A DNA stretch of 34,455 nucleotides, from the IMG/VR virus record IMGVR_UViG_3300046787_000353, positions 64,001 through 98,455 of that record. One strand, given 5' to 3'. Position numbers and translations under genes: made by a program. Shown here in pieces: positions 6,240 through 30,956 of the stretch. This DNA comes from a virus. Lineage: Duplodnaviria; Heunggongvirae; Uroviricota; Caudoviricetes. The notes below the pieces were generated by a model that was not told where the DNA came from, made no database searches, and worked only from the letters and a program-made list of their open reading frames with translations. How positions within the stretch are numbered: position 1 is the first letter of the stretch; each line of letters begins with the position of its first letter.

Positions 6240-6548
6240 TTATTTAAACTCATAACCATAAAATTCATAATTTTTATGAACCGATACGATATCGCCCATA
6301 GAAATTGCTTCCTCTTCATCTCTGTAAATGGCATCAACAGGACATTCGGGAATACAAGCACCACAATTGATGCATTCATCTGGGTTTATGTATAATTGTT
6401 TATCGAATAATTCATGTGGTTGCATAGTATGTACCTCCACACCTCTACCATCAATTGAAATAGGCCCATTGATACAATCTACTGGACAAACGGATACACA
6501 TCCCGTATCCACACATCCCACACAACTTTGTCCGATTATAAAACTCAT
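6240..6548 (-). CDS. 4Fe-4S dicluster ferredoxin
   Basis: CVGCVDTGCVSVCPVDC and CINCGACIPECPVDAI cysteine motifs, with an insertion between them. Confidence 0.93.
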   Translation of the reverse strand: MSFIIGQSCVGCVDTGCVSVCPVDCINGPISIDGRGVEVHTMQPHELFDKQLYINPDECINCGACIPECPVDAIYRDEEEAISMGDIVSVHKNYEFYGYEFK

Positions 6549-7452: not shown

Positions 7453-9075
<1,623 letters not shown>

Positions 9076-9096
9076 TTAATTATATTTTTGTTTCCA

Positions 9097-9128
9097 CAAA
9101 TATACGAATAATATTTCATTATACCAAA
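9097..9128 (-). promoter_or_regulatory. Bacteroidota-type promoter for groEL (TTTG-N20-TATATTTG)
   Basis: Perfect -33 TTTG and -7 TAnnTTTG consensus, 24 nt upstream of the groEL ATG. Confidence 0.85.
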
Positions 9129-9129
9129 T

Positions 9130-9160
9130 AAAAATGGGAGAAATTTTCGTTCTCCCATTT
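9130..9160 (-). terminator. Intrinsic terminator after the TonB-dependent transporter
   Basis: Perfect 11-bp stem AAATGGGAGAA/TTCTCCCATTT, 7-nt loop, following T-run. Confidence 0.85.
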
Positions 9161-9175
9161 AATTTTTTTATTTGA

Positions 9176-12100
9176 TTATCTACCAAATGTATATCGAATA
9201 CCTAATTGGGCACTCCACACATCGAATACCGATGAGTTATACTGATGGCTATCTCTAGCCAATACCGTAGAACCATCTACTAATCGTTGAGTTTGTAATC
9301 TGTAAGTTGGAACATTGTTTACATCTCTACTTACAAAGTTTAACAATTGCGGTGCAGTTGCTCTTTGAGAAACACCAAATGTATTATCAACCATATTACC
9401 AAAGTTAAGAATATCTGCTCTGATTTGGAATGAGTTTCTCTTTCCACCAATCTTAATAAAGATATCTTGTGCTACTGATAAATCAAATCTGTGTAAGTAA
9501 GGTAACAATCCACCATTTCTTTCAGCGTATTGTCCTCTACGAGTCGATAAGTATGGGTCTTGGTCTATGAATTTATCAAATGCCGCTTGTTGCTCACCTT
9601 CGGTATAAGTTTTACCACCAGCCGTTAAACTTGCGAATTTAATATCTGAACCTTTTAATGGAATGAAGATTAAATCATTGTTACTTACTCTATCACCATT
9701 TAAGTCACCCGCTACGATGTAAGAGTATGGGTTAGCTTGTTGCCCTACATATCCTAATGTAATTGTAGTTGCTCCACCCAATCCTTTTCCATATTCAATT
9801 CTATATCCTAATAAACCTACAAATCTGTTTTTTACAAATCCATCTGCCAATGATAATCCTAAATCATTATTACCATTAACTGATAATGCTGATTGCCAAG
9901 AACCACTAGCAATTGAACCGGCACTCATATAATCTTTTGAATTAGCCGTTGTCCAAGCGATTGAACCCCATAAACCTTTTTGAACAGGCTTTTCTAATTT
10001 TAATGTCAATGATTCGTGAAATGCACCATCTCTATTTGTAAGAACTGCTGCTCTACTTACGTTGTTGTTAATTCTTACAGTTACATCACTACCACCAAAA
10101 CGAGGTCTATTATCTACACCACCCAAAGTTCCAACTGGATTCTGTAAGTTAGCTTCGTAGTAATGAACTGCGTTAAGTGATTTGTTATAAAGATATTCAG
10201 CACTTGCTACCAATCCAAAGAATGGTAGTTTCTGGTCTACTGCTAAATTCGTTTTCCAAACTTGTGGGAATTTGTAGTTAGGGTCAGTTAATGCCAAATC
10301 AAATGTAGAAGGTAATGTTGGTGTAGAAGGAATGAAGTATTTGTTAGGGTCTGCGGTGAAACCATATTGAGCTGCCGCTGAACCACTCACATCTATAAAT
10401 CCCGTCAACACACCATTGTTACCAATTTGATTAGATAAGAATACATACGGAGGTCTACCAGTGAATACACCCGTTCCACCTCTAAATTGAGTCGTACCTT
10501 GTCCTTTTAAATCGTAATTAAAACCTAAACGTGGTTCAAAAAGAACTTGTGTTTTTGGCATTACAGCCGTATTTAATCTTTCACCATTTGCGAAAGTCAT
10601 TGCTGATACCGCTGGATTTTCTAATGCTGTATTTTCAAATCCAATAACATTTGCTCTAACACCAAATGTTAATTTCAAATCTTCGGTTGCGTTATATTCA
10701 TCTTGTAAATATAAATCTAATCTATCCGATTTCAAAGTTTGCATTGGTTCAATTGCGCCAGGCAATGCCGAATAACGGAATTGGAAACGAGCTGGTGCGA
10801 ATGTAGATGGTCTACCACCATTTGCTAATGATTGATTAGCTGCTGTGTAGAAATCTGCTAAACTATTGAAAATGTAAACACCATTAGATGCGGGGAAAAA
10901 TAAGTTGTTAGATTGATACTTTTGATAGTTAAACCCACCAACTAATGTATGTTTATCTAAATATTTAGTTACGTTATTCGTAATATTAAATGTAGTATAA
11001 TCTAATTTATTTCCAGGTGTGAATGGGTCAAATCCTACTGATGTAAGAGTTGTTGCTCCTTCTTTGATATCAATTGTTGGAAACAATGGAGATAAATACC
11101 CTCTGTTTTCAATTTGTTTATCATAAGAAACAATTAAGTTATTATGTAATGTATTTGAAAACTTAGAGTTTAATTCCAATACAGCCGAACGAGTATTATC
11201 CATAATGGTATAACCACTATTTTGGAAACTCATTGCGTTGATGTTTTGAGTTCTATTACCAAAACCTGCCGATTGTGAATTTGAAATATTGATTTGTGCT
11301 TCCGAATCATGGTAAACGTAACGACCCGTTAACTTATGTTTATCATTAATATTCCAATCCATACGAACTAAGAATTTGTCCGATTTGTTTGTATTAGAAT
11401 ATCCTTCAAATGGACCTGTTTCATATCCGAATTCATTTTTCATAAAGTTCGAAAGGTCAGTCAATTGTTGGAAAGTTGGTCTACTTACTTGTGAACCTGG
11501 CAATGGTGAACCCGTTGATGTCCAAGTTGTACCTGGTTCAGTTCTTTCAATACCTTCGTAGTTACCAAAAATAAATAATTTGTTCTTAATGATTGGTGCG
11601 CCTAAACGGATACCTTTAACTTTCTCATCAAATTTAGATGGAGTAATTGTAGTTCCATTTGCGTTATTACCAACGTAGGTAGAACTATTATCTCTTTGTG
11701 TTTGATATACAGAACCTTCAATTTCATTTGTTCCACTACGTGTTACTGCGTTGATACCTGCTCCCGTAAATCCACTTTGACGAATATCGAACGGTGCAAC
11801 ATTCACTTGCAATTGTTCAATGGCATCTAATGAAATAGCACTTGCTCCAGTTCTACCACCCGCTTGTGCCGATGAACCTAAACCGAAGTTGTTATTAAAT
11901 TGAGAACCATCAATTGTAAAGTTGTTCAAACGAGAATCTTGTGCTCCAAATGAGCTACCATTACCGAATGGGTTGTATTTCGTAATACCATCGATAGTTC
12001 TTGCTCCTGTAATTGGAATAGTGGTCAACTCTCTTCTACTGAATTGTTGAGATGCCCCAGTTCTTTGTTTTGAAATTAAACCATTTCTATTAGATGTTAC

Positions 12101-12451
12101 AACTACTTCTTTTAAATTAGTAGCTTCATCAACTAAAAAGAAATTAATATTAGTAGTAATACCCAATTGAGTAGCTACATCTTTAACTTCATCTTTTTTG
12201 TATCCCACATAAGTGGTTGATAATACATAAGGTCCTCCTACTCTAACTGCCGGTAGAATATAATTACCATTTTTGTTGGTAGAAGTTGAATACTTCGTAC
12301 CTGTTGGAGTGTGTACTGCTTGGACTGTTGCTCCAACCAATACTTCATTTTTCTCATTCTTTACAATACCTGAAATTGAGGATGAGGTAACTTGTCCAAA
12401 TCCCACAAAAGTAGATACCGAAAGGAGAAGCGATAGAATCACTTTTTTCAT
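9176..12451 (-). CDS. TonB-dependent outer-membrane transporter, Oar-like, with N-terminal carboxypeptidase-regulatory-like domain
   Basis: 1091 aa; signal peptide MKKVILSLLLSVSTFVGFGQ; GATVQAVHTPTG..YSTSTNKNGNY (CarboxypepD_reg-like); plug NFTIDGSQFNNNFGL and ISLDAIEQLQVNVAPFDIRQSGFTGAGINAVTRSGTNE; many amphipathic beta strands; terminal QLGIRYTF. Confidence 0.92.
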   Translation of the reverse strand: MKKVILSLLLSVSTFVGFGQVTSSSISGIVKNEKNEVLVGATVQAVHTPTGTKYSTSTNKNGNYILPAVRVGGPYVLSTTYVGYKKDEVKDVATQLGITTNINFFLVDEATNLKEVVVTSNRNGLISKQRTGASQQFSRRELTTIPITGARTIDGITKYNPFGNGSSFGAQDSRLNNFTIDGSQFNNNFGLGSSAQAGGRTGASAISLDAIEQLQVNVAPFDIRQSGFTGAGINAVTRSGTNEIEGSVYQTQRDNSSTYVGNNANGTTITPSKFDEKVKGIRLGAPIIKNKLFIFGNYEGIERTEPGTTWTSTGSPLPGSQVSRPTFQQLTDLSNFMKNEFGYETGPFEGYSNTNKSDKFLVRMDWNINDKHKLTGRYVYHDSEAQINISNSQSAGFGNRTQNINAMSFQNSGYTIMDNTRSAVLELNSKFSNTLHNNLIVSYDKQIENRGYLSPLFPTIDIKEGATTLTSVGFDPFTPGNKLDYTTFNITNNVTKYLDKHTLVGGFNYQKYQSNNLFFPASNGVYIFNSLADFYTAANQSLANGGRPSTFAPARFQFRYSALPGAIEPMQTLKSDRLDLYLQDEYNATEDLKLTFGVRANVIGFENTALENPAVSAMTFANGERLNTAVMPKTQVLFEPRLGFNYDLKGQGTTQFRGGTGVFTGRPPYVFLSNQIGNNGVLTGFIDVSGSAAAQYGFTADPNKYFIPSTPTLPSTFDLALTDPNYKFPQVWKTNLAVDQKLPFFGLVASAEYLYNKSLNAVHYYEANLQNPVGTLGGVDNRPRFGGSDVTVRINNNVSRAAVLTNRDGAFHESLTLKLEKPVQKGLWGSIAWTTANSKDYMSAGSIASGSWQSALSVNGNNDLGLSLADGFVKNRFVGLLGYRIEYGKGLGGATTITLGYVGQQANPYSYIVAGDLNGDRVSNNDLIFIPLKGSDIKFASLTAGGKTYTEGEQQAAFDKFIDQDPYLSTRRGQYAERNGGLLPYLHRFDLSVAQDIFIKIGGKRNSFQIRADILNFGNMVDNTFGVSQRATAPQLLNFVSRDVNNVPTYRLQTQRLVDGSTVLARDSHQYNSSVFDVWSAQLGIRYTFGR

Positions 12452-12493
12452 ACTTGTTTTTGTTTTGTTAAAAAAATTGTTTAATTGTTTAAT

Positions 12494-12526
12494 AAAAAAA
12501 GGGATACATAATCATGCATCCCTTTT
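12494..12526 (-). terminator. Intrinsic terminator between the Hc1-like gene and the transporter gene
   Basis: Minus strand AAAAGGGATGCAT-GATT-ATGTATCCCTTTT then TTT; one G-U pair. Confidence 0.8.
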
Positions 12527-12532
12527 AGGGTA

Positions 12533-12706
12533 TTAAGCCTTACCTTCTTCGGTAGAAGCTTTTCTGTAATCTGTGATTAATTTCTTAACCTCACCGATTG
12601 CTTTTCTGGCATTAGCCTGCGATTTCTTAGTTGTTCCATTGTGTTGTTGTACAAAATCAGCAAATAATACTTCCATTTGCTCGAACAATTCCTGCTTTTT
12701 ACTCAT
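12533..12706 (-). CDS. Histone H1-like Hc1-family protein (57 aa)
   Basis: Not in ORF track. MSKKQELFEQMEVLFADFVQQHNGTTKKSQANARKAIGEVKKLITDYRKASTEEGKA resembles the Bacteroidota Hc1 pattern (G.K.A..RARK...E.KKL...YRK.S); has its own promoter and terminator. Confidence 0.8.
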   Translation of the reverse strand: MSKKQELFEQMEVLFADFVQQHNGTTKKSQANARKAIGEVKKLITDYRKASTEEGKA

Positions 12707-30242: not shown

Positions 30243-30956
30243 TTAGTTTGAGATTTCCACTAAATAATAACGACAATTGAACTCATCAATTTTGAAATTG
30301 ATTGTAGCCAATCCATCTGGCGATACACTCAATTTAGCCGATGTAGCCTCTTTGTTAGCCGTTAAGATTTCTTTTAAATATTTTGCTGAAAATGAAATTG
30401 GTTTTACATCACCTGTGAATCCTTTGATTGCTGTGAATGTAACTCTATTTGTTGAGATTGTAGAGTAACCAATTGCAAGTTTTAAATCACCACCTTCTGG
30501 GAAGATTGTAAATGTATCGATATCACTCAATGCTCCCTTTGCTTTGATGAACTTGTCAATCATAGAAGAAGTCATCTCAATATCAATATTGAAATCAGGT
30601 AATTGTTTCAAATCAGGTACAACCGGAATTACACCTAAATCTGCTAATTGATACGAAGTTTCAGTATCATCCGATGCTAATTTCAATACGGTAGCTTTAT
30701 CACCAGCCATATCTACTTTTAAACTTAAATCGTTATCTAAAATTCCTACCAAATTCTTTAATAAAGAAGTTGTGTAAATACCAATGTTGAATGGGGTTGA
30801 TGTAAATCCATCAAAATCCACTTCACCTAACATCGTTTTGTCATCGGAAATAAATCTAACTGATAATTTAGTTCCTTCTGCGTTCCATGCTACTGATTCA
30901 ATTACTCCACCTAATGAGTATTTCTGAATGAAGCGTAATAAATGTTGCTTGTTCAT
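30243..30956 (-). CDS. DNA polymerase sliding clamp (T4 gp45-like)
   Basis: 237 aa with a repeated beta-alpha clamp-like pattern (FNIGIYTTSLLKNLV; FSAKYLKEIL); lies between PolB and the clamp loader. Confidence 0.8.
   Translation of the reverse strand: MNKQHLLRFIQKYSLGGVIESVAWNAEGTKLSVRFISDDKTMLGEVDFDGFTSTPFNIGIYTTSLLKNLVGILDNDLSLKVDMAGDKATVLKLASDDTETSYQLADLGVIPVVPDLKQLPDFNIDIEMTSSMIDKFIKAKGALSDIDTFTIFPEGGDLKLAIGYSTISTNRVTFTAIKGFTGDVKPISFSAKYLKEILTANKEATSAKLSVSPDGLATINFKIDEFNCRYYLVEISN

Follow-up and report, generated by a model that had tools for sequence, protein, structure and literature searches.

An Oar-class TonB-dependent transporter gene of host origin, exchanged as a mosaic among jumbo phages

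The stretch of DNA analysed here, called the window throughout, comprises 34,455 nucleotides at positions 64,001 to 98,455 of the IMG/VR virus record IMGVR_UViG_3300046787_000353 and forms the final 34 kb of a 98-kb linear record that is 51% complete by CheckV estimate. At 9176..12451 on its minus strand, the strand of every feature described below, lies a complete coding sequence for an Oar-class TonB-dependent transporter (TBDT) of 1091 amino acids plus stop, assigned from Pfam matches, an AlphaFold2 model and fold matches. The original prediction for this DNA described an intact reading frame for such a transporter, and the frame is indeed free of stops and frameshifts. The surrounding genes on the same strand encode a T4-type PolB, a clamp loader, a PD-(D/E)XK nuclease, GroEL, an endolysin and a thymidylate synthase (ThyA). 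The TBDT gene is a phage auxiliary gene, having viral genes on both sides in complete genomes and being present in relatives.

The precursor begins with a predicted signal peptide (aa 1-19, 12395..12451), a hydrophobic N-terminus in which AlphaFold2 places a helix at aa 2-12 with a low predicted local distance difference test score (pLDDT). Cleavage is predicted from the sequence at MKKVILSLLLSVSTFVGFG|Q, i.e. before Q20, a residue that is nearly invariant (at least 90% conserved) in the alignment of relatives; this fits the 'Q-rule' of Bacteroidota, whose signal peptides are cleaved before a glutamine. The N-terminal extension domain that follows (aa 20-110, 12122..12394) is CarboxypepD_reg-like (Pfam PF13620 and PF13715), with a CarboxypepD_reg match over aa 25-106 (E 4e-16, 59.5 bits against a cut-off of 32.3), and is the most variable domain, at 53-82% identity among phage alleles. 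Both the signal peptide and this domain had been predicted originally. The linker at aa 111-124, disordered with pLDDT below 50 and otherwise hypervariable, contains the TonB box LKEVVVT (aa 113-119, 12095..12115), and an EVVV-type TonB box after an N-terminal extension is a feature of SusC-like proteins. The core of the box, L-x-E-V-(V/T)-(V/I), is retained, between variable flanks, in all of the common phage linker variants listed, and is slightly looser in nine copies from Chitinophagaceae metagenome-assembled genomes (MAGs), with D for E in two and I at the fifth position in one.

A putative plug domain (aa 126-244, approximate boundaries; 11720..12076) was located by fold alignments only: alignments to YddB, FusA and FepA begin at about aa 108 and span the plugs of those proteins. 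The plug of the original prediction has the support of fold only; Pfam Plug (PF07715) was not detected in the protein even at E<=1. The rest of the protein (aa 245-1091, 9179..11719) is predicted to be a β-barrel of 22 strands with 11 extracellular loops, in agreement with the full barrel claimed earlier; 22 long strands appear in the DSSP string of the AlphaFold2 model, from which, rather than from coordinates, strands and loops were assigned, and OMP_b-brl_4 (PF25183) matches aa 348-1021 (E 5e-52, 177.9 bits against a cut-off of 30). The protein ends in ...RYTFGR, with F1089 invariant at position -3 and followed by GR or GK, so that the supposed terminal Phe is third from the end. The model, built on a 43-sequence alignment, has a pLDDT of 86.6 and a predicted template modelling score (pTM) of 0.82, disorder being limited to aa 1-19 and aa 111-124. 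Its best fold match among reviewed proteins (Foldseek, AFDB-SwissProt) is Oar of Myxococcus xanthus, over the full length (E 2e-49), and the top solved structures are FusA and YddB, then FepA, PfeA, Cir and other TBDTs; there are at least 359 PDB fold matches at E<=0.001, and all 50 listed are TBDTs. A profile search of PDB sequences gave no match, NCBIfam no family at E<=0.01 and PHROGs no family matching the transporter. Given a PF25183 barrel above the gathering score and an N-terminal PF13620/PF13715 domain, the predicted protein falls, by domain content, within the Oar class.

A degenerate-pattern scan of IMG/VR returned 90 viral stretches encoding a relative, and about 75 of the 80 examined contain a full-length open reading frame (ORF), so that intact viral copies are found well beyond the window. 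Both the upstream and the downstream junction of the window gene are repeated in at least seven other metagenome assemblies, contigs from other samples (L002, L005, L017, L020, L049, L071 and the contig carrying P0002) having the same genes on either side of the transporter. Three genomes with direct terminal repeats and 100% CheckV completeness (G001, 245,436 bp; G006, 321,283 bp; G014, 179,381 bp) each have one copy of the gene and a large terminase. The family spans phages of 179 to 324 kb and comprises at least 120 distinct 90%-identity protein clusters at 84% identity or more to the window copy, those checked being viral. The third-position GC content (GC3) of the gene is 0.21, and that of the other genes of the phage 0.19-0.31. 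The locus had no megablast match among GenBank phages, and tblastn hits were limited to two unannotated gut 'Bacteriophage sp.' fragments (32% and 46% identity).

Two records that carry a copy have unusual labels or sizes. A 10-kb contig of an 'uncultured Cyanobium sp.' MAG (L129, CAYNGR010000116.1) encodes a 77%-identical transporter together with six other genes shared with the window, among them an endolysin at 79%, and is a contig of a phage that was wrongly binned with a cyanobacterial MAG. A 636,496-bp contig (L004, JGI 3300051786, Ga0502775_0000012) carries an 86%-identical copy among phage-like neighbours, including an endolysin 72% identical to that of the window and many small ORFs without Pfam matches, and a second similar place is reported on it; because relatives that share the same two genes measure about 324 kb (G005), the contig may be a concatemer of two copies and not a megaphage of 636 kb.

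The nearest cellular copies (GTDB, one genome per species) come from Sediminibacterium/Chitinophagaceae MAGs at 67-70% identity, one of them on a 5.26-Mb contig, followed by copies of Flavobacterium isolates at 55-58% identity to the window copy. Their neighbours are ordinary chromosomal genes (pgi, a DAO oxidoreductase, a CN hydrolase). In trees built with FastTree and IQ-TREE, all viral copies of 66-95% identity group with the nine Chitinophagaceae copies in one clade, fully supported (100%) in the SH-like approximate likelihood ratio test (SH-aLRT) and sister to Flavobacteriales. Within this clade the viral copies are not a single group, at least three viral groups interleaving with cellular ones. 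An approximately unbiased (AU) test gave p = 2e-6, a value that applies to a group named after the first tree had been seen and to a gene that recombines. The phylogeny indicates that the gene is host-derived, from Sediminibacterium/Chitinophagaceae-like Bacteroidota, and suggests bacteria of this kind as the hosts of the phages, an assignment made from this one gene. GC and GC3 were considered as signs of recent transfer and set aside as unusable, because phage and candidate hosts share the same composition.

A second, distinct Oar-class family, 37-38% identical to that of the window, is present on other large viral contigs (L078 and L080-L084, e.g. G015, 273,997 bp, CheckV 100%). Given that it groups with different Chitinophagaceae-type cellular copies, jumbo phages have captured transporters of this kind more than once. 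Among the cellular orthologues the only synteny is at order level, in Flavobacteriales, with pgi upstream and a fasciclin-domain protein downstream. In Flavobacterium (L095-L104, L122, L138) the gene for the latter, of about 344 aa, begins about 50 nt downstream of the orthologue, and the phage copies are without it; the fasciclin-domain protein could be a surface partner in Flavobacteriales.

By sequence comparison, the history of the transporter gene departs from that of the genomes that carry it, and the gene is mobile among unrelated giant phages. The window transporter is 77% identical to those of L020 and L071, whose neighbouring genes are mostly 70-91% identical to those of the window, and 72% identical to that of L035, with PolB at 83%; it is 88% identical to the transporters of L048 and L003, with PolB at 57% and 36%, respectively. 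Synonymous divergence (dS) between the window and L048 is 0.55 for the transporter, 0.94 for GroEL and 2.1 for the clamp loader, PolB being saturated; against L003 it is 0.70 for the transporter and 3.5 for PolB, and against L002, the closest backbone, 0.61 for the transporter and 0.96-1.38 for its neighbours. In every genome comparison made, the TBDT gene has the lowest synonymous divergence and is the youngest gene. It is also internally mosaic: the N-terminus of the window copy is nearest to that of the backbone relatives, L066 matches the window copy at 96% identity in the plug and in two segments of the barrel, and a third allele group comes nearest in the middle segment of the barrel.

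Among phages the transporter gene is found in at least six different neighbourhoods. The synteny with an Hc1-like gene and groEL that was to be surveyed after the original prediction exists, an Hc1-like ORF accompanying the transporter gene in 12 loci and GroEL in 18; the proposed association with a glycan island is no fixed link. GroEL of the phage adjoins the transporter in four arrangements (observed in the window at 7453-12451 and in L048, L021, L003, L010 and L074): the window type, PolB-orf-TBDT-GroEL-clamp loader, GroEL-TBDT-clamp loader and GroEL-TBDT-orf795. Since both genes are far less diverged from their L048 counterparts than are the clamp loader and PolB, the pair may have moved together.

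The TBDT of the phages is under purifying selection. The pooled ratio of non-synonymous to synonymous substitution (dN/dS) over the whole gene is 0.16 for 400 phage pairs, 0.10 for Chitinophagaceae and 0.08 for Flavobacterium, these being Nei-Gojobori pairwise counts for a recombining gene of an AT-rich genome in which synonymous sites saturate at a proportion of differences (pS) of about 0.70-0.76. Close viral pairs give 0.03-0.14 and single pairs overall 0.03-0.21, so that relaxed selection does not describe the viral copies. The plug is the most conserved part (84-96% identity and entropy 0.26 among phage alleles), with a dN/dS of 0.075 in phages, 0.027 in Chitinophagaceae and 0.021 in Flavobacterium, and is followed by the strands (0.13, 0.051 and 0.047), the periplasmic turns (0.16, 0.069 and 0.077) and, as least constrained parts, the extracellular loops (0.18, 0.135 and 0.097) and the N-terminal extension (0.16, 0.095 and 0.091). 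The same ranking of plug, strands, turns and then loops or extension holds in the Chitinophagaceae and Flavobacterium orthologues. Alignment of phage and cellular copies revealed no phage-specific insertions or deletions and only three phage-fixed substitutions, all in the N-terminal domain. Given the shared domain ranking, the retained TonB-box core and the lack of phage-specific indels, the phage protein has been kept as the same kind of machine as that of the host, under somewhat weaker constraint.

The transporter gene is bracketed by terminator-like hairpins, one of 13 pairs (12497..12526) that ends the upstream Hc1-like ORF and one of 11 pairs plus a T-run (9132..9160) that lies 16 nt past the TBDT stop codon. 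Between the former and the start codon there is a short T-run and then an A/C-rich leader (...AACAAAACAAAAACAAGT-ATG; 12452..12496). Hairpin, T-run and short A/C-rich leader directly precede the ATG in most phage copies inspected, whatever the upstream gene. The leader was considered as a promoter or leader shared by phage genes, and this was rejected, as it is unique to the TBDT gene in the 98-kb record; it moves with the gene across phage backbones and probably arrived with it, because the host orthologues, too, are preceded by CAAA-rich leaders of a similar kind. The Bacteroidota -7 motif TAnnTTTG is absent from the 150 nt upstream of the window TBDT, and over the same distance it is present in 41 of 73 cellular orthologues versus 5 of 66 phage copies. 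Only 5 of the 40 minus-strand genes of the window have it within 120 nt upstream (GroEL, Hc1-like, cupin, PD-(D/E)XK nuclease and 30243-30956), and these genes may mark transcription units, possibly early ones, read by the host polymerase. The view that the transporter shares the terminators and promoters of the phage genes therefore holds for the bracketing hairpins and fails for the promoter, there being no TAnnTTTG, unlike at GroEL, the Hc1-like ORF, cupin and the nuclease. The Hc1-like ORF itself (12533-12706, 57 aa) scores 22.0 bits against a Pfam Hc1 cut-off of 23.5, and has TAnnTTTG 36 nt upstream and its own hairpin; in 12 related loci a homologue lies 69-112 nt before the transporter gene.

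As had been noted for the window, partner and energy-coupling genes are lacking: no SusD-family Pfam match occurs among the scanned window neighbours, in the Pfam lists of L002-L004 or in the scanned host loci, and no TonB_C or MotA/ExbB domain occurs in the 98-kb record (G000) or in five related phage records (G001-G005, four of them estimated 97-100% complete). Since the phages encode none of their own, the phage TBDT would rely on the TonB-ExbBD of the host.

It is somewhat probable that this host-derived Oar-class TBDT, a mobile auxiliary gene of several freshwater jumbo-phage lineages infecting Bacteroidota, is a working importer running on host TonB. The precursor would be exported by host Sec during infection and its signal peptide cut before Q20, whereupon the β-barrel assembly machinery (BAM) of the host would insert the protein in the outer membrane via its C-terminal strand. 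The conserved TonB box would then couple it to host TonB-ExbBD, and the protein would import the same substrate as the single-copy orthologue of the host, which could raise the capacity for uptake while a genome of 200-320 kb goes through its long replication. Transcription would either continue from the Hc1-like unit by read-through or start at a promoter specific to the phage, no host-type promoter lying directly upstream. Several points weigh against this proposal. The conserved plug is no proof of transport, because a plug also keeps a 22-strand barrel from leaking, and in plug and strands the phage copies are about 2-3 times less constrained than the bacterial ones. No conserved partner gene stands beside the bacterial orthologues across classes, so that they give no clue to a substrate, and the loss of the host promoter shows that regulation of the phage TBDT differs from that of the host gene. 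Furthermore, the swapping of alleles and the variation of the loops fit a role in surface recognition equally well, and the findings on mobility, age and promoter do not show the role of the protein.

Such a surface role is the subject of an alternative that is possible, if on the whole unlikely, in which the phage transporter remodels the cell surface and excludes superinfection, either by displacing or crowding out the native transporter that serves rival phages, or the phage itself, as a receptor, or by tying up host TonB so that TonB-dependent entry of competitors fails. It would account for a recombination hot spot at which mosaic alleles are exchanged between unrelated phages, for close backbone relatives that carry different alleles (the window and L020/L071, at 77% for the transporter and 80-91% for its neighbours), for the fast evolution of extracellular loops and N-domain and for the retained TonB box, and a role of this kind is proposed for phage outer-membrane proteins generally in the passages searched of a 2026 preprint (bioRxiv 10.64898/2026.10.24.761521). 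However, the loops are the most variable part of the cellular orthologues too and the overall constraint profile is host-like; titration of TonB would need only the N-terminal part, yet the entire barrel is under purifying selection; and there are no phage-specific loop changes or indels. Transport is favoured over a surface role because constraint is host-like over the whole protein and the loops have no changes specific to phages. A further proposal, regarded as improbable, is that the TBDT, sometimes with GroEL, acts as a fast mosaic cassette among jumbo phages that share a host group, driven by phage-phage competition at the surface rather than by feeding: the host orthologue would be a common receptor, and a phage's own allele would exclude rivals or spare progeny from loss on debris.

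Outward transport as in Myxococcus, in which the phage TBDT would release a phage or host protein or a glycan, perhaps one made by the neighbouring sugar-activation and glycosyltransferase genes, is considered very unlikely. The best full-length fold match is Oar, which M. xanthus needs for secretion of PopC (PMC6434023), and in the window the TBDT lies beside GHMP kinase, cupin, cytidylyltransferase and glycosyltransferase genes. This link to glycan genes is not conserved, the TBDT lying elsewhere in a replication module or beside endolysin or ThyA; identity to Oar is only 14%, and the cellular orthologues are stand-alone genes in housekeeping contexts. As for an artefact, be it an assembly chimera, host contamination in a viral contig or a decaying passenger gene, the linear and only half-complete record could invite the suspicion, as could a few low-completeness 'viral' contigs that group with bacterial copies and may be host fragments. 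However, a chimera is ruled out because identical junctions recur in contigs of many independent assemblies from other samples and terminal-repeat-complete genomes carry the gene; moreover, the TBDT gene does not stand out from the rest of the phage's genes in GC3, its nearest cellular counterpart reaches no more than 70% identity and dN/dS is well under 1. The artefact can thus be given almost no credence and is effectively refuted. The low-completeness contigs in question (L044, L045 and L054; IMG/VR, CheckV 9-13%) share almost nothing with the window phage and may be host fragments or prophage edges; as they also group with bacterial copies, they are not countable as independent phage acquisitions.

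Among known proteins, the stand-alone TBDTs of Chitinophagaceae (Sediminibacterium MAGs) and Flavobacterium are closest, having the same length, domain order, TonB-box core, Q after the signal peptide and ...RY(I/T)F-G-(R/K) ending as the phage copies, without indels. The phage copies differ in that they lie between phage genes, are mostly without TAnnTTTG, evolve about two times faster at non-synonymous sites and recombine between phage lineages. Oar of M. xanthus (P38370) shares the CarboxypepD_reg N-domain and the PF25183 barrel, with template modelling (TM) scores of 0.64/0.66; its secretion role is established in M. xanthus alone, and the present findings give no sign of export. SusC/RagA proteins likewise have a CarboxypepD_reg-like extension followed by an EVVV-type TonB box and are among the fold matches (SusC Q8A1G1, 8aa4), but the phage TBDT has no SusD partner in the scanned loci and no NCBIfam SusC/RagA signature, and its barrel is of the PF25183 and not the SusC type.

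The original prediction held this to be an undescribed system, which cannot be maintained, given that phage-encoded TonB-dependent receptors are already published. In the passages searched, Michniewski et al. (2021) assign an uptake function to a putative SusC encoded by Mar_Mega_1, a marine megaphage (PMC9723777), and the preprint mentioned above describes 22-stranded TonB-dependent receptors in huge phages, Lak phages among them, and reports transcripts for a Lak phage (bioRxiv 10.64898/2026.10.24.761521). These reports, at annotation or survey level in the parts consulted, likewise deal with complete TonB-dependent barrels encoded by very large phages whose hosts are of Bacteroidota type, the likeness being one of description. 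Mosaic exchange between backbones, promoter loss and a domain-wise selection profile were not found in the searched passages of either source; relative to those passages, the present analysis adds these three features, the promoter lost being that of the host, together with the youngest-gene pattern across backbones saturated at PolB. Outer-membrane transporters carried by phages suggest a refitting of the infected cell's surface by giant phages, with a bearing on nutrient fluxes in lakes and on phage competition, and the family offers a clean test system of one gene with a clear single-copy host orthologue and natural allelic mosaics.

FusA (4zgv) and YddB (6ofr), the nearest solved folds, align with the phage TBDT from the plug to the C-terminus (E 2e-32 and 2e-29, TM by target 0.68-0.69) and differ from it in their identity of about 12% and in being without the N-terminal CarboxypepD_reg domain. 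Both are protein-importing TonB-dependent transporters, which gives a hint only as to what the phage protein might carry. A gene for a 2x[4Fe-4S] ferredoxin lies at 6240-6548, 2.6 kb downstream of the transporter gene. FusA, the best solved-structure match of the transporter, imports ferredoxin, namely the plant [2Fe-2S] type, and the proximity of the two genes is probably a coincidence.

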